12,149 nucleotides of DNA from a virus. Taxonomy: Duplodnaviria; Heunggongvirae; Uroviricota; Caudoviricetes. A model generated the notes under the pieces. It was given only the letters and a program-made list of their open reading frames with translations. It did not search any database and was not told the DNA's origin. The stretch lies in the IMG/VR virus record IMGVR_UViG_2737471817_000011, positions 1 to 12,149 of that record; one strand, 5' to 3'. Of the stretch, positions 1,346 to 11,582 are shown one piece after another (position 1 is the stretch's first letter; each line of letters starts with the position of its first letter). The translations under genes and the position numbers were made by a program.

Positions 1346-1426
1346 GTTGGCATTATAAAAAAGCATTGCTTATCAATTTGTTGCAACGAACAGGTCACTA
1401 TCAGTCAAAATAAAATCATTATTTGA
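1346..1426. promoter_or_regulatory. P' arm of attL with tandem Int arm-type sites (aggtcactat / cagtcaaaat, 1392-1411)
   Basis: Arm-type consensus-like decamers read directly at 1392-1401 and 1402-1411, followed by AT-rich aaaatcattatttg. The 3' end of int overlaps this arm, as in lambda. Confidence 0.7.
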
Positions 1427-2489
1427 TTTCAATTTTGTCCCACTCCCTGCCTCTGTCATCACGATACTGTGATGCCATGGTGTCCGACTTATGCCCGAGA
1501 AGATGTTGAGCAAACTTATCGCTTATCTGCTTCTCATAGAGTCTTGCAGACAAACTGCGCAACTCGTGAAAGGTAGGCGGATCCCCTTCGAAGGAAAGAC
1601 CTGATGCTTTTCGTGCGCGCATAAAATACCTTGATACTGTGCCGGATGAAAGCGGTTCACGACGAGTAGATGCAATTATGGTTTCTCCGCCAAGAATCTC
1701 TTTGCATTTATCAAGTGTTTCCTTCATTGATATCCCGAGAGCATCAACATGCAATGTTGTAGGTATGGCAATTTTTACGCCCGTTTTGCTTTGCTCGACA
1801 TAAAGATATCCATCTACGATATCAGACCACTTCATTTCGCATAAATCACCAACTCGTTGCCCGGTAACAACAGCCAGTTCCATTGCAAGTCTGAGCCAAC
1901 ATGGTGATGATTCTGCTGCTTGATAAATTTTCAGGTATTCGTCAGCTGTAAGTCTTGATCTCCTTACCTCTGATTTTGCTGCGCGAGTGGCAGCGACCGG
2001 GTTTGTTGTTATATGGCCTTCAGCTATAGCCTCTCGGAATGCATCGCTCAGTGTTGATCTGATTAACTTGGCTGATGCCGCCTTGCCCTCGTCAATGTAT
2101 CCATTGAGCATTGCCGCAATTTCTTTTGTGGTGATGTCTTCAAGTGGAGCATCAGGCAGACCCCTCCTTATTGCTTTAATTTTGCTCATGTAATTTATGA
2201 GTGTCTTCTGCTTGATTCCTCTGCTGGCGAGTATTTTTTCGTAGCGATCAAGCCATGAATGTAACGTAACAGAATTATCACTGTTGATTCTTGCTGTCAG
2301 AGGCTTGTGTTTGTGTCCTGAGAATAACTCAATGTTTGCCTGTATTGCTTCAGTAATTGCTATCCTCCTGTCTCTGCCTAATCCGAACTCTTTACCCGTC
2401 CTTGGGTCCCTGTAGCAGTAATATCCATTGTTTCTTAAATAAAGGTTAGGGGGTAAATCCCGGCGCTCATGACTTCGCCTTCTTCCCAT
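1419..2489 (-). CDS. int: Lambda-type tyrosine integrase Int
   Basis: 356-aa ORF starting MGRRRSHERRDLPPNLY and ending EWDKIEIK, near-identical to lambda Int as I recall it. Catalytic region contains HELRSL and GHKSDTMASQY (tyrosine recombinase R/H/Y signature). Sits next to the att core. Confidence 0.96.
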   Translation of the reverse strand: MGRRRSHERRDLPPNLYLRNNGYYCYRDPRTGKEFGLGRDRRIAITEAIQANIELFSGHKHKPLTARINSDNSVTLHSWLDRYEKILASRGIKQKTLINYMSKIKAIRRGLPDAPLEDITTKEIAAMLNGYIDEGKAASAKLIRSTLSDAFREAIAEGHITTNPVAATRAAKSEVRRSRLTADEYLKIYQAAESSPCWLRLAMELAVVTGQRVGDLCEMKWSDIVDGYLYVEQSKTGVKIAIPTTLHVDALGISMKETLDKCKEILGGETIIASTRREPLSSGTVSRYFMRARKASGLSFEGDPPTFHELRSLSARLYEKQISDKFAQHLLGHKSDTMASQYRDDRGREWDKIEIK

Positions 2490-2685
2490 TTCTGATCCTC
2501 TTCAAAAGGCTACCTGTTACTGGTCGATTTAAGTCAACCTTTACCGCTGATTCGTGGAACAGATACTCTCTTCCATCCTTAACCGGAGGAGGGAATATCC
2601 TGCATTCGCGCACCCATCGACGAACTGTTTCAAGGCTTCTTGGGCGTCGCTGGCGAGCGTTCCACTCCTGAAGTGTCAAGTACAT
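2467..2685 (-). CDS. xis: Excisionase Xis (lambda-type)
   Basis: 72-aa ORF MYLTLQEWNARQRRPRSLETVRRWVRECRIFPPPVKDGREYLFHESAVKVDL, matching lambda Xis from memory. Its 3' end overlaps the int start by 23 bp, as in lambda. Confidence 0.94.
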   Translation of the reverse strand: MYLTLQEWNARQRRPRSLETVRRWVRECRIFPPPVKDGREYLFHESAVKVDLNRPVTGSLLKRIRNGKKAKS

Positions 2686-2892: not shown

Positions 2893-2972
2893 TTATCATC
2901 TCCATAAAACAAAACTCGCCGTAGCGAGTTCAGATAAAAGAAATCCATCAATTGGTTAGGGTATTTGTAATT

Positions 2973-3158
2973 CTACGAATTATGTTGTTTTTTAGCTTCA
3001 GCTTTCCATTCATCAAAGGCAGTGTCTTTGTTCATGGTGCTGATATTGATCTTACGGTCAATATCATATACACGCCACTCACCGTTAGGCCTCTCTTCGC
3101 ATCTAACTAAGTATGAATTGCCATTAATATCTATGCGTCTGTCTATTTGCATGAACAT
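2973..3158 (-). CDS. Hypothetical small protein (61 aa from the first ATG; track ORF uses a TTG two codons upstream at 3164)
   Basis: ORF MFMQIDRRIDINGNSYLVRCEERPNGEWRVYDIDRKINISTMNKDTAFDEWKAEAKKQHNS. I recognise no family. It is flanked by AT-rich gaps on both sides, unlike the overlapping genes upstream. Confidence 0.35.
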   Translation of the reverse strand: MFMQIDRRIDINGNSYLVRCEERPNGEWRVYDIDRKINISTMNKDTAFDEWKAEAKKQHNS

Positions 3159-3275
3159 TTTCAATTTTCGAATCCTCTTTAATATGCATTTTTTGCTATT
3201 TCAGTAGTTTACTATTGATGAGGCGTTATTATACACACTTCATTAATGCAAGCATCTTTATGCTATGCTACTAAT

Positions 3276-3557
3276 TTAGCCATCAATATTCACCTTTATC
3301 GCGTACACCTTTACCGGTTTATCGCCGAAGTGCGGATGTGTGATTGTCTTGATTTCATAGCCGCCATACGGAACGTCAATTCTGCGGCTGGAATCGTCGC
3401 GCTTCGGATATCCCTTTGTGATAATCAGGCTGTCATACTCCCGTAACATAATTCGCTTATTCCAATAGTCATTACACAGGCGATACTCTTCCGTTTTCTC
3501 TCCTCGAATCATGGCATCGAAGTATTCACCTTTGACGGCAAGTTGTAGGTTAGCCAC
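3276..3557 (-). CDS. 93-aa phage accessory protein; N-terminal motif resembles PUA-like ASCH/DUF3850 beta-barrel proteins; positional analogue of lambda ea8.5
   Basis: ORF MANLQLAVKGEYFDAMIRGEKTEEYRLCNDYWNKR... The pattern hydrophobic-x-(E/P)YF-x-A-x-x-x-G-x-KT-x-E-x-R is typical of ASCH/DUF3850 N-termini. Its start overlaps the stop of the upstream Lar-like gene by 8 bp (operon). Confidence 0.5.
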   Translation of the reverse strand: MANLQLAVKGEYFDAMIRGEKTEEYRLCNDYWNKRIMLREYDSLIITKGYPKRDDSSRRIDVPYGGYEIKTITHPHFGDKPVKVYAIKVNIDG

Positions 3558-3852
3558 GGTTAACCTCCTGCGGAGTAGCCTTTACAAGCACTGGTGCAAA
3601 TCCATCTTCATTAAGGTTATGAATATAGACTTCTGTTCTCCTGCGCTCTTCAACGTTTAATATTGTTTCTGGATCATAAACCCATACTTTCATTCGACTA
3701 TTCCATGAAGAAATCGCTTCAGATCTAGTTCGTTTTTCTGGTCCTTGGGCACCACATTTGCATGACACATAGCGCATTTTCCCTCTGATACTGAATGAGT
3801 ATCCGATGTTAAGCACAGTGGAACCACAGAATGGGCAGCGATATAGATTCAT
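3550..3852 (-). CDS. Lar-family zinc-ribbon protein (putative restriction-alleviation / modification-enhancement protein)
   Basis: 100-aa ORF MNLYRCPFCGSTVLNIGYSFSIRGKMRYVSCKCGAQGPEK with a CPFCG...C-x-CG four-cysteine zinc ribbon near the N-terminus, as in Lar (RalR-like) proteins. AGGTGGA Shine-Dalgarno upstream. ATGA start/stop overlap with the upstream 254-aa gene. Confidence 0.6.
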   Translation of the reverse strand: MNLYRCPFCGSTVLNIGYSFSIRGKMRYVSCKCGAQGPEKRTRSEAISSWNSRMKVWVYDPETILNVEERRRTEVYIHNLNEDGFAPVLVKATPQEVNRG

Positions 3853-4610
3853 AAATCATCCACCTTAGGCGCAGCTGAGACAGCAACATTCCAGAACTCA
3901 GAAAACATATTGTATGCACCAGATAGATTGGAAGTGGCATACCCTCCAAGCTCACTTCTAATCTGAACGGCTCTCATCATTTCCGGCGTTAACTCCTTCG
4001 GCACCATAACCCAACCATCCGGAGTTACCGGAGAGTTGCCATTTATATCGAAGTTTGGCTCTGCGTCCTGAACCAGGAGGATGTAACCATTCTTGGCAGT
4101 ATCAAGTTCTAACGCCTCGGTGACGGTGCCGAAATAGCGATTGCCTAAATCAGCATCACAAGTGCTTACATCAATGGAAACTTCCATGCCTTCGATTAAT
4201 TCTGGCAAGTTGTAAGTTTGGCTTACATGTTGGCTACCCTGAAGCATGGCGGCGCGGCAGGCGTTCCAGCCTCTCACCTCTGCAATAGCGGCAACAGCAT
4301 CAACCGCGTACATTTTAAGAGGGTTAGGCATTGGTTTTTCTTCAGGTACTACTGGCACTGGAGGGGCGGCATAAACAGGAATAACGTCCGATTGCTCTTT
4401 ATTGCTTTCATCCGTTAAAGCCCAGAATAATTTTCCAGCCGGATGTTTGAAAATATAAGCAACTGGTTCTGCTTCCAGCGATGCCAGCGCCAACTTGAAC
4501 GCCTGAAGCTCAATGGCACTGTTGGTATCCAGTCCAAACGGTAATTCATCACGATTGGCTTCGTATTCAGCGATAGTTTGCTTCAGCCATTCTTTGGTTA
4601 GTTCAGCCAT
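3849..4610 (-). CDS. Hypothetical 253-aa phage early-left accessory protein (positional analogue of lambda ea22; family not recognised)
   Basis: Track ORF 3849-4661; I place the start at the internal ATG 4608-4610 (MAELTKEWLKQTIAEYEANRDELPFG...), which is preceded by AAGGGG. Acidic, proline-rich linker (PVYAAPPVPVVPEEKPMPNP) between two predicted domains. Translationally coupled to the Lar-like gene. Confidence 0.6.
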   Translation of the reverse strand: MAELTKEWLKQTIAEYEANRDELPFGLDTNSAIELQAFKLALASLEAEPVAYIFKHPAGKLFWALTDESNKEQSDVIPVYAAPPVPVVPEEKPMPNPLKMYAVDAVAAIAEVRGWNACRAAMLQGSQHVSQTYNLPELIEGMEVSIDVSTCDADLGNRYFGTVTEALELDTAKNGYILLVQDAEPNFDINGNSPVTPDGWVMVPKELTPEMMRAVQIRSELGGYATSNLSGAYNMFSEFWNVAVSAAPKVDDL

Positions 4611-4614
4611 ATCC

Positions 4615-4824
4615 CTAATTCCCCTTGGTGCTGACTTTGACGCCAACCTTGCGAATCTCATCGGCGCATCTGTTCACGATACTCCGGTGAAACTCACAAA
4701 AAATTTTCGCCGACTGCGGCCCTAATGGGTGAACATCGTGCGCACGCGGCAGTACAACCTCCCGCGCCTCCATGTCAGCAATCCGCTTGTCTTTGGCTTC
4801 CAGCTCATTCAGCAGCGCCAGCAA
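4615..4824 (-). CDS. Questionable small ORF at the deletion junction (TTG start in track; possible 5'-truncated remnant of an early-left gene)
   Basis: Translation LLNELEAKDKRIADMEAREVVLPRAHDVHPLGPQSAKIFCEFHRSIVNRCADEIRKVGVKVSTKGN. No ATG with a Shine-Dalgarno at its 5' end; an in-frame stop lies only 8 codons upstream. It ends 4 bp before the 254-aa gene start. Confidence 0.25.
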   Translation of the reverse strand: MLALLNELEAKDKRIADMEAREVVLPRAHDVHPLGPQSAKIFCEFHRSIVNRCADEIRKVGVKVSTKGN

Positions 4825-5747
4825 TTCAGCAGATTGATACTGAGATATCTAATCTGCAGAAGCTTGGTAAGGTGGCTGATAACGAGACTATTTCAAAACT
4901 TCAGTCATATCGTGATGAGCTTGTTCGCAATGCTGGTCCTGATGGTCCGGTCAATCTGGATTTGAAGCAATTAAGCGATCTGCGCAGCCAGTTCAGAATG
5001 GACGTGAAGGGTGAGCGACCAGTGTTACCAAACCGTTCCGATGCTGCCATTCAGCGAGTTTACAAGGCGATGACCGACGATATCAATGGTGCCATTGGTC
5101 AGAATCTTGGCAATGATACTCTTCGTAAATATCAGCAGGCCAATGCCGTCTACGCTGACGAAGCGGCGAAACTAAAGAATACCAGGCTGAAGAATGTTCT
5201 CATGAAAGGCGACCTGACTCCGGAAGTTGTCAACAACATGCTATTCAGCAAGAACAAATCGGAAATTAAGACTCTGTATAACTCAGTTGGTCGTGTTGGC
5301 AGGGCGCAAATGCGCAATGGCATCATTGGAAAGGCGATGGAGAAATCAGGTGGTTCCCCTGACCAGTTCCTTCGGCAGCTTAATATCCTGCAAAACCATA
5401 CTGGCATCACATTTAAGGGGCAGGACTCTGCTTATCTGAAAGGATTAAAAAACTACCTGCAATCCACGCAGCAGGCTGCAAAAGCGGCAGTAACAACACC
5501 CACAGGGCAGCAAACTATCCCGTTCATTATTGGGTATGGGACGGCAATGAACCCGGCGACAACTGGCGCAGCAGTAAGCTATGGACTTCTTACGCGCGTC
5601 TATGAGAGCGAGCCATTCAGAAATGCAATGCTCCGAATGGCAAACACCCCGCGCGGATCAACAGCGTTTGAGAAAGCCATGCAGCAGGCACAAAAGGCAA
5701 TTAACGCTATGACGCAGGGGGCTAAGTCTGATGCGTTGTCAGAATAG
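4725..5747 (+). pseudogene. Probable 3' fragment of a P22-like internal virion / DNA-ejection protein gene (gp16-like by position); the first ~35 codons of the track ORF are probably not coding
   Basis: Long + strand ORF ending 90 bp before a convergent mnt-like gene, the position gene 16 occupies relative to mnt in P22. The C-terminal region is Ala/Gln-rich (QQAAKAAVTTPTGQQ...MQQAQKAINAMTQGAK). The N-terminal 4725-4830 is GC-rich, low-complexity and overlaps a minus-strand ORF. Confidence 0.4.
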
Positions 5748-5836: not shown

Positions 5837-6097
5837 TTAGTTGCTGTCTTTTTTATATAGCTCCTTGAGCGTATCAAAGACAATTTTCTTAACCATATCA
5901 GATTGTTGTTCTGCCATACGCTCTGCATCGTCAATGTAAACTGATGCAGAGCTTTGTTTATCCAATGATTCTTCAATCGCTGCAATTATCTCTGAGTTCA
6001 GCGACCTGTTATTCATCTTCGCACGCTGCTTAATTTTCGCGTGGAGTTCATGCGGAAGTCTCAAGTGAAACTGCGCCTCGTCGTATTTGCTGTACAT
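5837..6097 (-). CDS. mnt: Mnt-like ribbon-helix-helix repressor (immI-type)
   Basis: From the internal ATG at 6095-6097 (AAGGA Shine-Dalgarno upstream): MYSKYDEAQFHLRLPHELHAKIKQRAKMNNRSLNSEIIAAIEESL...DAERMAEQQSDMVKKIVFDTLKELYKKDSN. Closely parallels P22 Mnt as I recall it (FNFRMPMEV...GRSMNSELLQIVQDAL...DAERLADEQSELVKKMVFDTLKDLYKK). Confidence 0.8.
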   Translation of the reverse strand: MYSKYDEAQFHLRLPHELHAKIKQRAKMNNRSLNSEIIAAIEESLDKQSSASVYIDDAERMAEQQSDMVKKIVFDTLKELYKKDSN

Positions 6098-6170
6098 CCT
6101 TGATGCCTCACCAGTTGGGTGGAATGGCATCGTAACCTACTGGATAAATACTCAACAGTACCATTTCGGT

Positions 6171-6228: not shown

Positions 6229-6729
6229 TCACCTACTCAACAGATGGTCAGCAACCATGTTTGCTGCCTTATAAGCTATAGCAGCTTCATCAATGGTGTT
6301 GAATCTCCCAAGGGTTATGTTTTTACCTGAGACATTTATCTGAGCTTGCCATTGATTTCTGGCTTGACAGAAAGTTACCCCCTTGATCCCAGCATTGCTA
6401 TTTCGAGGTCCGACATTTAATGCATTTACGACTCTGCTGACATCCCTAAGGTTTGAGATTGCGTTATTTCTTCTGTTTCTATCAATGTGGTCAATCTCTT
6501 GTTTGGGCCATTCGCCATATACATACAGCCAGGCAAGTCTATGTGCAAAATATCTTACGCCATCAATATTAATTGCGTTATATCCATAAGAAATTGTGCC
6601 AGCAACTTTCCCAACAGCACCTCTGGCGCTTAATTTCTTTTTCCAAGTGAAAATTCCTGTTTCTTTATTGTAATCGAGAACCTCCATAAGGCGCTCCCGA
6701 GTTACTACCTCGTGACGTCTCTTACTCAT
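6229..6729 (-). CDS. HNH endonuclease with C-terminal AP2-type DNA-binding domain (homing-endonuclease-like)
   Basis: From the ATG at 6727-6729 (GGAG Shine-Dalgarno upstream): [14 protein letters not shown]... HNH_3-type motif [36 protein letters not shown], then AP2-like [43 protein letters not shown]. Confidence 0.8.
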
Positions 6730-6751
6730 TATTTTCTCCGGAATGTTTATT

Positions 6752-8644
6752 ATGCCAGAACAATTATACAACGTTGTTGTTTCACAACCAAGTCAGTTAT
6801 TTACTTTAGCTCGCTCGTTTAAAGCAAATGCCAATGGCAAAATTTATATCGGAAAAATTGACACTGACCCTGTAAATCCTGAAAACCAGATTCAGGTTTA
6901 TGTGGAAAACGAAGACGGCTCTCACGTTCCTGTATCGCAACCAATCATCATTAACGCTGCTGGTTACCCGGTATATAACGGACAGATTTCCAAGTTCGTA
7001 ACCGCGCAAGGCTATTCTATGGCTGTGTACGATGCATACGGCTCTCAGGAGTATTACTTCTCGAGAGTTAAAAATGACACGCGGTCAGTCACATCATTCC
7101 TGAGTAGCAGGGAATTATGGAAGAAGTACTTGAAGGAATTTGGAATCGTTCTAGTTGATGGTAGCTTTGAGGAAGGGGCAACAGTTAGCGCACCAAATCA
7201 GGCTGTATGGTATAAGTTTGATGGAAAGTGCTATGCAAGAGTAACCGGAGATAGCGTTATCGTTGCATCTGGCTCATCGCCAGACTCAGGCTGGACATCT
7301 GACATTGGCTCACGCATTAAAGCGTGGCTCCCTAATACATCACCAAATACAGATGTATCTACGCGTTTGCAGGCATTGCTTACAGTCGGGAAAGGTGAGA
7401 TTAAAATCCCTGACGGGCGCTATACGGTAAACACCGTCCTTATTACTAACTTTAGCGATTCATCATTCCCATCACTGGGGGCTGGCAGTCCACGTTATAA
7501 TTTTAGCGGTTCATCGATTAACAATACTATTTTCACGGTTTCTGATAATTACTTGCTGAATCACACTGGTGGGGTGAGCGGAACTGTAGTTCATGGAACA
7601 AACACTTATATGAGAACCGGTGATTGTCAGATAATTGGAACTGGAGCAACAAGTAGCGGTGGTTTCAAGTTTAGTTTTTGCACATTTATTGAAGTCGAAA
7701 ATATACGTGCAGCATTGCTTGGAATTCCAGTGTATTTTGCAAACTGCATATATAACTATGTGCGAAACATCAGAGTTGATAATTCTCTGTACGGCATATT
7801 TACAGAAAGTTCAGATCCATCATTCCCAACAAATTCAACATTTGTTGATGATTCAACATTTACTTACTGCTCAAGATATGCTGTAGAGGCGACCATTGGT
7901 CTCACCTTTAACATGACCAATTGCAGTATTGAGAAAAATGGTGTACAAGGTGATGTAAATACTGGTGGGATTTATTTAAAGGTTACTGAGCCGTTAAGTG
8001 TTATAAATATCACTGGAACGTATTTTGAAGCAAACAAAGGAAATGCTGACATAACTGTCCTTAACTCTGGCGGCGGCACCATAGTCGTAAATTTAATAGG
8101 TTGCACGTTTAACAGAGGTAACTCAGATGGGGGTTATACATTAACAAACTTCAAATCACTGTCTCATGCAGGGGTTGGTAAGATTATACTAAATCTACAA
8201 GGGTGTCATTTCTTCTCAAATACATCGTGGGGATTTACTCCATCGGCTGATAAACCTTTTATTACACCTGACACATGGCTTACTGTTAATGGTCTGGATA
8301 CATGTACATTCAGTGAAACAACAAGTCTACCAGACACTATTCAATCAAGCTCATCCAGTATTAGCGTCAAGGTTGCTGCGGATGGTACAAAAATCAGCGG
8401 CCCATCCTACATCACAACGTCAAAAACAGGAACTGGAGTTTATTCAGTAACAAGTAATTATCCATTAGGTACATCGCCTGTTGGCAATGATTATTCCGTA
8501 ATGGCTATATCCAACATCGATGGTTTTGTTGTTACAAGCTCGGCAAATCAAAGTGCAACTTCCTTTAATGTAAGAACTAAAAGTTCTTCCGGTTCCGCTG
8601 CAGACACAGCCTTTAGTGTGACAATTACAAGACGAATTGGGTGA
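6752..8644 (+). CDS. Tailspike protein: P22-type N-terminal head-binding domain plus a distinct beta-helix-like receptor-binding domain
   Basis: Residues ~10-105 ([72 protein letters not shown]...AVYDAYGSQ) parallel the P22 gp9 head-binding domain as I recall it. The rest is Ser/Thr/Asn/Gly-rich with repeated N-x-(S/T) and Cys-containing short repeats, typical of right-handed beta-helix depolymerases. Alternative start at 6743. Confidence 0.85.
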
Positions 8645-8649
8645 TTAAG

Positions 8650-8679
8650 GATGGCGCATATGCGCCATCTTTTTATTTA
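8650..8679. terminator. Bidirectional intrinsic terminator between convergent tailspike and gtrC genes
   Basis: Perfect 20-bp palindrome GATGGCGCATATGCGCCATC (8650-8669) followed on the + strand by TTTTTATTTA. The gtrC stop codon (8673-8675) lies in the T-run. Confidence 0.65.
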
Positions 8680-9947
8680 TTGATTACGCAATCATAAAAG
8701 GCTGATACCTGACCTAAATTACCAAAAAACCAATACTCTCTGTTGTTAATATATCTATATGTATATGGCGTTGAGATTCTATTAACTTTAATTCCATTTT
8801 TACACGACCCATTAAACCTTGCAGATTCAATTGTTGATTCTCTTAATGAATCTTGTGCTGAATATGCAACAGCTGCCTTAAGAGCAAGTAATGATGATGG
8901 AACCGACAGTAACACGATGGATAGCAAAATTATTATTGATGCCTTGCTTTGTTGTGATATCACCAAAATAGTGGAGCGAGTTATAACTGCTGTCATTATG
9001 CACCATGAGAACATGAATGCCCTTGCTTCTGTGTATGGTGACATAATCATTGAACCATCAACAAGAACAGCGGCAATAATACAGAGCCATATTTTTACAC
9101 TCGCTTTATTGGTATAAATTAAATATCCAATTGAAATAACGGATATAAACATTAAAAACCATGATGTAGTTACGAAAACAGTGATAACATCAATAATTCT
9201 TGCCGTGATGTAATCAATGCTCATTCCATTGTAATTTAAAGCATGTTGATAAAATTCCTTTCTCCGTACTGTTGATGGAGCTAGAACAATGATAATCCAT
9301 CCTGCCAACACAAAAATCATAGGAATAATGCGCTTTATTGATAGATTATCATTAATAAAACAAAATAATAACATCGTTATAAGTAAAGCAACTGGTACAT
9401 TTTCAAAACTAAGTCCAGCCAAGAGACATGCAAATAAATACACGCAATAATATTTTATTTTTATTTTTTCAATTAAATTGTAATTTATATACACAAGCAA
9501 TACCGATAGCGTTATTACCATCGGTTGCAGGTATCCAGCATTTGCTGTTTTCCAGAAAAAAACCTCAAATCCAGGCCAGAACGAATATATTGCAATAATT
9601 GAAACGCATGTCCCAAACATAGCGTTATTGCTATCATCTGAGAAAATCCTGAAAATAATATAAGATAGGGCCAAAAAAGAAATAATTGATACGACTATAA
9701 AAAATGTTGGCGGCATGCTCAAGTTAAATATTGCAAGTTGCTCACCAAGCCTTGCGTTCCACATTTCAATTTGTCTTGCTGATCTTTCAACTGAATACAT
9801 GATTCTTGTAATCAAGTCGTGATTAATGAATCTTTTGGTTAATGCAAAATCCTCACCAGCCAATGGGAATATTGAGAATGTTATTGCATAAACAGATGTA
9901 AGAAAGCCTGCAACTATGTAGATGCAGCGATTTATGTTATTTACCAC
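8673..9947 (-). CDS. gtrC: GtrC-type serotype-specific O-antigen glucosyltransferase (polytopic membrane protein)
   Basis: 424-aa, strongly hydrophobic ORF with many predicted transmembrane segments, immediately downstream of gtrA-gtrB and overlapping the gtrB stop by 11 bp. GTG start 5 nt after AGGAGG. Very AT-rich (only 11 G/C in 9421-9480). Confidence 0.75.
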
Positions 9948-10863
9948 ATTCCCCTCCTTTCAGAATATAGCGCGGACGATGCTTAACTTCTGTATAAATT
10001 CTGCCAATATATTCACCAAGAACGCCGATTCCAATCAATTGAATGCCACCGAGGAATAGTATTGATACAAGAAGTGACGGATACCCAGGAACGTTGTTGC
10101 CAAACATCAGCTTGTCAATAATCATCCACGAGCCATACATAAATGACAGGCTGGCGACAAAAAGGCCAATGTATGTCCACATTCTCAGTGGTAAGGTAGA
10201 GAAGCTGGTGATTCCTTCGAGTGCCAGATTCCATAACTTCCACCCGTTGAATTTAGAATCACCTGCGACGCGTTCTGCCCTGGCATACTCAACAACATCT
10301 GTGCGTCCGCCAACCCAGCTCAGCACGCCCTTCATAAATAGGTTGCGTTCCGGCATGAGTTTTATGTTCTCCACGACCTCGCGGGACATCAGACGGAAGT
10401 CACCAACGTTTTCTTCAATCTTCGGATGACTAATTTTGTTGTGCAGTTTATAAAACCACTCAGCGGTTTTTCGCTTTAATCTTCCATCAGTAGATCGATC
10501 TGATCGTTTTGCAAGCACCATATCAGCACCTGCCTGCCACTTTTCAATAAGATGAGGAATAACCTCAATCGGGTCTTGCAGGTCAACATCAATTGGAATT
10601 ACAGCATCTCCGGTTGCATGGTCTAACCCTGCAAACAATGCTGGTTCTTTACCAAAGTTTCGTGTAAATGACAGCGGAACAACTAGAGGATCTGAAACGG
10701 ACAGAGCGTTAATGATTGACTCCGTAGCGTCTTTGCTACCATCATTTATAAAAACAATTTCCACTTCATATGGCTTCAACTCTTCGAATTCACGTACCGT
10801 TTTATAAAAAATTGGTATCGCTTCCTCTTCATTGAAGACAGGAACGACCAGAGATATCTTCAT
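9937..10863 (-). CDS. gtrB: GtrB bactoprenol (undecaprenyl-phosphate) glucosyltransferase, GT2 family
   Basis: 308-aa [53 protein letters not shown]... (GT2 N-terminal fold, DxD-type region PIDVDLQDP) with two C-terminal transmembrane helices, the classic GtrB/YfdH architecture. 4-bp ATGA overlap with gtrA. Confidence 0.92.
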
Positions 10864-11222
10864 TTCGCATCCCTAAAGACAATGAACTTTGAATAGACGA
10901 AACCGCACACCAAGCTGATGGCGGAGAAGGTGACAAGAGTGACAATTGGAGGAAGTGCACATCTATCAGCAGCCCATCCAACAGTAGCACTCAGTGTTCC
11001 CATGAACCCGACATATAACATGTAACGCATCGTTGTAGTTGATGCTTTGAATGTGAATTTTGCATTCGCGAAGAAGCTAAAACTCACAGCCACAACAAAA
11101 CCTGCGAAGTTTGCAAGAGCCTGATTTGTATGCGCGGCATAGATACATACACCAAAAACCACCCAGTGTATAAGTGTGTTCAGCACACCAATCGAGGTGT
11201 ACTTTGCAAATAGCTTTAACAT
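10860..11222 (-). CDS. gtrA: GtrA flippase-family small membrane protein
   Basis: 120-aa [62 protein letters not shown]... with four predicted transmembrane helices. Recognised from memory as GtrA (YfdG-like). First gene of the gtr operon, as in P22 and Shigella serotype-converting phages. Confidence 0.92.
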
Positions 11223-11567: not shown

Positions 11568-11582
11568 GCTTTTTTATACTAA
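11568..11582. other. attR: attR core: second copy of the 15-bp core GCTTTTTTATACTAA, followed by bacterial B' arm (cttgagcg)
   Basis: Exact 15-mer at 11568-11582, a direct repeat of 1331-1345. Downstream cttgagcgaaacggg matches the attB right arm as I recall it. Confidence 0.9.

Follow-up and report, generated by a model that had tools for sequence, protein, structure and literature searches.

A stand-alone mini-ASCH protein of predicted PUA-like fold in the ea22-xis variable slot of a lambdoid prophage remnant

Gene content of the prophage remnant

The stretch of DNA analysed here (12,149 nt from IMG/VR virus record IMGVR_UViG_2737471817_000011, hereafter the window) contains a complete prophage remnant of approximately 10.25 kb at the lambda attachment site, between ybhC and ybhB. 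It is considered complete because the lambda att core (GCTTTTTTATACTAA; 0.01 expected by chance) occurs without mismatch on either side of the whole element, at positions 1331-1345 and 11568-11582. The features within it are collected in Table 1. Both int and xis are intact, and the remnant may still be excisable. An internal deletion with its junction at approximately 4806-4820 has removed everything in between, namely the genes for recombination, immunity, replication, lysis, and the head, and the sequence upstream of the ea22-like gene now runs into a DNA-transfer-protein gene of which the 3' part is present. Towards attR lie a repressor gene, a tailspike gene, and an O-antigen modification cassette, the third gtr gene of which differs, in a serotype-specific manner, in related E. 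coli remnants. A 180-aa ORF of the homing-endonuclease type runs antiparallel to the tailspike gene and shares 29 nt with its start.

Table 1. Features of the prophage remnant and of the ORF93 locus
Feature	Position	Strand	Remarks
int	1419-2489		Intact
xis	2467-2685		Intact
orf55	2725-2892	minus	
Terminator-like hairpin	2912-2931	minus	Common to window, EC2, and lambda; immediately before the mosaic breakpoint
Rest of swapped-in module 3' of ORF93	2947-3275	minus	orf63 and spacers; DNA alignment, phrog match
orf63	2973-3164	minus	63 aa; phrog_16329 (function label unknown), no Pfam match
ORF93, stand-alone mini-ASCH (predicted PUA-like beta-barrel) protein	3276-3557	minus	93 aa, GTG start (ORF list)
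ASCH octapeptide GxKxxExR	3480-3503	minus	Codons for GEKTEEYR, residues 19-26; helix 1-strand 2 junction of model
Lar-family restriction-alleviation-like protein	3550-3852	minus	100 aa; PF14354, TIGR03655, phrog_599
Shine-Dalgarno AGGAGG	3564-3569	minus	6 nt 5' of GTG (3555-3557), within 3' end of Lar-like gene; from sequence
ea22-like gene	3849-4661	minus	
DNA-transfer-protein gene, 3' part	4725-5747	plus	P22 gp16/Sf6 gp13-type
Mnt/Arc-like repressor gene	5837-6130		
HNH_3 + AP2-domain ORF	6229-6771	minus	180 aa, homing-endonuclease type; between repressor and tailspike
Tailspike gene	6743-8644	plus	
O-antigen modification cassette	8673-11222	minus	Next to attR
DUF6056 membrane protein	8673-9947	minus	GtrC position
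GtrB-like family-2 glycosyltransferase	9937-10863	minus	
GtrA-like	10860-11222	minus	

ORF93 is a constrained gene of the leftward early operon

The 93-aa minus-strand ORF that the original prediction placed in overlap with a Lar-like gene was found as described. Its translation begins MANLQLAVKGEYFDAMIRGEKTEEYRLCND / MANLQLAVKGEYFDAMIRGEKTEEYRLCNDYWNKRIML, the motif quoted in that prediction corresponding to residues 6-26, and the overlap amounts to 8 nt (3550-3557), which read GTGGCTAA in the coding direction. In this direction the last codons of the upstream gene are ...CAG GAG GTT AAC CGT GGC TAA, and the GTG of ORF93 lies inside that stretch. This start is favoured because homologues share the N-terminus, beginning MANLQL or MADLHL at the same point. 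The upstream neighbour scores above the cut-offs of both Pfam PF14354 (Lar_restr_allev; 35.7 bits against 28.6, E 1e-8) and TIGR03655 (58.7 bits against 39.6, E 5.3e-16), and consists of a zinc ribbon at residues 2-53 and a C-terminal tail of approximately 45 aa; the tail, which is without a Pfam domain, matches inside the larger phrog_599 profile.

ORF93 is a real gene, and its family is strongly constrained and found very widely among phages of Proteobacteria. Over 65 distinct alleles from viral contigs, dN/dS relative to the window allele has a median of 0.09, tblastn matches occur in 332 phage records, and 722 clusters (50% identity) match at E<=0.001 in an exhaustive HMMER scan, which together dispose of a chance ORF. 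The phages with tblastn matches include 933W, VT2-Sakai, phiV10, Sf11, and RCS47, together with Jersey-like Salmonella phages and P2-like Ralstonia and Vibrio phages. An overlapping plus-strand ORF at 3246-3446 was rejected outright.

Because stop and start codons overlap from the ea22-like gene through Lar to ORF93, and no promoter-like site was found upstream, ORF93 is assigned to the leftward early operon. This remnant has lost its pL promoter region, and the window copy of ORF93 may therefore be silent; its conserved residues are all retained.

Cassette exchange at the position of lambda ea8.5

The gene order int-xis-orf55-ea8.5-ea22 of lambda is replaced in the window by int-xis-orf55-orf63-ORF93-Lar-ea22-like. 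When the window is aligned with lambda and with the remnant that E. coli EC2 carries at the same att site, the DNA is near-identical through xis, orf55, and the terminator hairpin, up to a mosaic breakpoint at 2946/2947. Beyond it, lambda and EC2 have ea8.5 homologues that are 41% identical to one another, whereas the window has orf63, ORF93, and Lar. The slot between ea22 and xis has undergone a cassette exchange, with three genes filling the place of lambda ea8.5, and the locus provides a clean example of such an exchange within a block already described as variable (PMC8614690).

The original prediction had observed that the protein shares its length and position with lambda Ea8.5 and lacks the Cys/His content expected of its zinc finger, and had proposed a non-orthologous replacement. 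Length and Cys/His content bear this out, both proteins being 93 aa long, with five Cys and four His in Ea8.5 and one Cys and two His in ORF93. The position agrees only loosely: both occupy the orf55-ea22 slot, but ORF93 is one of three genes there, and the replacement is to be corrected to one of ea8.5 by three genes. Equal length and a shared place between xis/orf55 and ea22 might instead be read as marks of a divergent orthologue of Ea8.5, a homeodomain/zinc-finger hybrid. We reject this reading: BLASTP returned no alignment between the two at E<=100, the metal ligands are missing, the predicted fold of ORF93 is an unrelated beta-barrel, the breakpoint marks a cassette exchange, and the true Ea8.5 homologue of EC2 is unrelated to ORF93. 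The equal length is a coincidence.

The orf55 gene, 95% identical to that of lambda, is conserved right up to the breakpoint; a modelling paper has proposed lambda Orf55 as a T7 Gp2-like RNA polymerase modulator (PMC8614690). Within 80 related viral loci, drawn from an alignment search that returned only homologues at least 92% identical, orf63 travels with ORF93 in 11 and is nearby in 12, and is absent from most. By position it is unrelated to the orf63 of lambda.

Assignment to the ASCH branch of the PUA-like superfamily

At the level of sequence profiles, ORF93 reaches only the margin of the ASCH family. Pfam ASCH (PF04266) matches it at 16.1 bits (E 0.019), under the gathering threshold of 21.2 bits, and matches the family consensus at 17.4 bits; only 4 of the 60 diverse homologues attain E<0.01, and the weak matches of ORF93 fall on N-terminal profile positions 25-58. 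None of the 120 close homologues has a precomputed Pfam assignment (entry '-'), whereas every YqfB homologue is assigned PF04266. DUF3850 (PF12961) gave no match to ORF93 at E<=1; two of the 60 homologues match DUF3850 at E<0.01 (E about 0.002). An NCBIfam scan gave no match, and a PDB sequence search with ORF93 and the 60-sequence profile returned chance matches only. PHROGs assigns it to phrog_625 (E 1.6e-49), for which the function label is unknown. Sequence HMMs alone do not justify the ASCH label.

That label is already public. RefSeq gives the name 'ASCH domain-containing protein' to proteins encoded by 96-98%-identical DNA in E. coli genomes, the nearest named protein clusters (88-95% identical) bear it likewise, and it is found in phages such as 933W and RCS47, the family being PHROG 625. 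The identification is correct but ordinary, mini-ASCH proteins being common in temperate phages; beyond the sub-threshold Pfam match, it is now backed by a confident structure prediction and a catalytic-pocket motif.

An AlphaFold2 model computed from the 60-sequence alignment (pLDDT 90.9, pTM 0.79) has the order b1(3-8)-a1(10-18)-b2(23-27)-a2(30-36)-b3(43-48)-b4(59-63)-b5(67-72)-b6(82-88), a predicted PUA-like beta-barrel in which a single helix separates strand 1 from strand 2. The best 16 Foldseek matches in the PDB are all of ASCH type, among them 3iuw, 2z0t, ZmASCH, TTHA0113, YqfB, and PF0470, and YTH domains come next. By match score, the structural neighbours are 3iuw (6.8), 2z0t (6.4), YqfB (9kyf; 6.0), the EVE protein PH1033 (5.4), the ASCH structure 3s9x (5.3), 1t62 and YTHDC2 (5.2 each), PF0470 and the EVE protein VcaM4I (5.1 each), and ZmASCH (5.0). 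In the viral structure library BFVD, the named weaker matches include several phage proteins designated DUF3850, ASCH, or 'activating signal cointegrator'. The beta-barrel anticipated in the original prediction is thus what was modelled, and no non-PUA fold emerged.

The ASCH/PUA-like reading of the N-terminal motif is likewise upheld by the octapeptide GxKxxExR, which has been described as part of the a1-b2 region of ASCH proteins, where it lines the cavity (PMC6803910). In ORF93 it falls between the helix at 10-18 and the strand at 23-27 of the model; across the 60 diverse homologues K21 is invariant, and G19, E24, and R26 are each kept in at least 90%. Further conserved residues are Y12/F13, W32, R35, Y50, H74, and F77, and the family has conserved motifs of its own (YWxKRL, GYPK, and THPHFG). 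When the family profile was compared by hhalign with YqfB, with a YqfB alignment, and with EOLA1, only the motif region was aligned; the octapeptide stands in exact register with YqfB (11-26) and EOLA1 (5-26) in alignments that are non-significant by themselves, and the YqfB alignment added little, since the database search behind it gave only homologues at least 83% identical. As predicted fold and motif agree, placement of ORF93 in the ASCH branch of the PUA-like superfamily, at the edge of the Pfam model's reach, is supported.

Comparison with known ASCH proteins and proposed function

Members of the ASCH superfamily (PF04266, PUA clan), such as PH0355 (2z0t), PF0470 (1xne), and L. crispatus ASCH (3s9x), have the beta-barrel of the ORF93 model, likewise with helix a1 following b1 and preceding b2 and with the octapeptide at the a1-b2 junction. 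With 93 aa, ORF93 is shorter than most of them, in addition to having its own motifs and a sub-threshold Pfam score. Identity to the structurally closest protein, the Enterococcus faecalis 'activating signal cointegrator' protein 3iuw, which we take to be a DUF3850 member, is only 16-17%.

Two characterised enzymes allow a more specific comparison. In E. coli YqfB, an N4-acetylcytidine amidohydrolase (9kyf/9kyh) and a chromosomal housekeeping gene unlike the phage-borne ORF93, Lys21, Thr24, Arg26, and Glu74 are catalytic for N4-acylcytidine hydrolysis (PMC9599836). ORF93 has K21 and R26 of this set, but the position of the nucleophile Thr24 is occupied by Glu24, and the helical insert that carries the acid Glu74 is missing, no significant alignment covering that residue. 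With the human EOLA1/TRIP4-like clade, ORF93 shares the Glu-type octapeptide in the same numbering (G19, K21, E24, R26). The EOLA1 pocket is formed by K21/E24/R26, R26A abolishes ac4C deacetylation, and E24, two residues before the motif Arg, is reported to be absolutely conserved in the TRIP4-like clade (bioRxiv 10.64898/2026.08.01.741249); the same Glu is retained in at least 90% of the 60 ORF93 homologues. Many bacterial members of the TRIP4/EOLA-like clade are reported to be linked to base modification and restriction-modification systems (bioRxiv 10.64898/2026.08.01.741249; PMC6803910).

Our literature search found no experimental work on the ORF93 gene. The YqfB and EOLA1 studies nevertheless lead to a concrete hypothesis, to which we assign a probability of roughly 60%: ORF93 would be a minimal ASCH protein that binds or hydrolyses a modified base in its pocket, encoded by a dispensable early accessory gene. 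The gene lies, translationally coupled, in the leftward early ('exo-xis'/ea) operon of a prophage remnant of lambdoid/P22-like type, and its protein would present K21, E24, and R26 to a nucleobase pocket, as EOLA1 does and as YqfB does with Thr in place of Glu. A modified nucleobase, whether part of a free nucleoside or nucleotide or flipped out of RNA or DNA, might enter this pocket, our best guess being an N-acylated or N-methylated cytosine or adenine, and would be closed in by the conserved Y12/F13, W32, R35, Y50, H74, and F77. The base would then be either bound only or hydrolysed, by an amidohydrolase-type reaction like those of YqfB and EOLA1. For the phage, the gene could serve host takeover or counter-defence as an independent cassette in the orf55-ea22 slot.

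Two other activities must be weighed against this proposal. A non-catalytic nucleic-acid binder, the barrel of which reads or regulates host or phage transcripts, strikes us as unlikely, if worth keeping in view. An older annotation, 'RNA-binding protein', implies such a role but is computational only; the K/E/R residues are catalytic in both characterised stand-alone ASCH enzymes (PMC9599836; bioRxiv 10.64898/2026.08.01.741249), and the conserved polar residues K21, E24, R26, R35, Y50, and H74 exceed what a simple binder would need. A metal-dependent ribonuclease that cleaves single-stranded RNA in the manner of ZmASCH, and so aids host shut-off, seems highly improbable. ZmASCH is larger (140-150 aa, with extra helices), the structural match to it is weaker than those to 3iuw, 2z0t, and YqfB, the residues reported as important in it could not be mapped onto ORF93, and many prophages carry this 93-aa protein, which as a constitutive RNase would probably be toxic.

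Possible links to Lar, zinc ribbons, and DNA modification genes

The overlap and translational coupling of ORF93 with the Lar-like gene in the window raise the question of whether the two form a restriction-alleviation module of two components. The pair recurs, with coverage of >=80%, in 14 E. coli genomes, Cys-pair-rich N-terminal extensions are present in 7 of 132 full-length distant homologues (50%-identity representatives, approximately 5%), and one of the structural neighbours in BFVD (A0A8S5UN54, 168 aa) bears the name 'Restriction alleviation protein'. Against this, the Lar gene of the window lies upstream of the ORF93 homologue in only 2 of the 80 related viral loci (homologues at least 92% identical), most having an Ea22/EaA/DUF551-type gene there instead. 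In the annotated records of Jersey-like, P2-like, and other phages no Lar was found near the ORF93 homologue, the neighbourhoods of distant members having been sampled through eight such records only, and the Cys-rich extensions have no similarity to Lar by Pfam or phmmer. A dedicated Lar partner is accordingly very doubtful. ORF93 behaves as an independent mosaic cassette, and in Jersey-like, P2-like, Casjens-like, and other phages its homologues have early or replication genes around them.

A broader version of the counter-defence idea, which we consider a long shot, is that phage mini-ASCH proteins act as enzymes or decoys on a modified base or nucleotide of host defence, at times with a zinc-ribbon (Lar-like) partner. 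Such a protein could, for example, strip off or cover an N-acyl or N-methyl modification, or degrade a modified nucleoside freed by tRNA or DNA cleavage; if true, this would constitute a new class of counter-defence protein.

The Cys-rich extensions (P0149, P0167, P0218, P0220, P0175, and P0209) are 55-90 aa long and zinc-ribbon-like, with two or more Cx2-4C pairs. A tblastn search of isolated phages with a zinc-ribbon-plus-ASCH homologue gave no fused version, and the sole Pfam match among the longer ORF93 homologues was an Ea22 read-through rather than a domain fusion. A 364-aa metagenomic homologue (P0180), in which a reverse-transcriptase-like N-terminal region without a Pfam match precedes an incomplete copy of the domain, may have arisen as a chimera during assembly. 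In two cases the ORF93 homologue has DNA methyltransferase genes no more than 1-2 kb away, Erwinia phage pEp_SNUABM_08 (L089, 3993-5021) and a Helicobacter prophage (L091, 594-1565 and 3456-4319); this proximity, anecdotal in a sample of two loci, accords with the reported link between Glu-type ASCH proteins and base modification.
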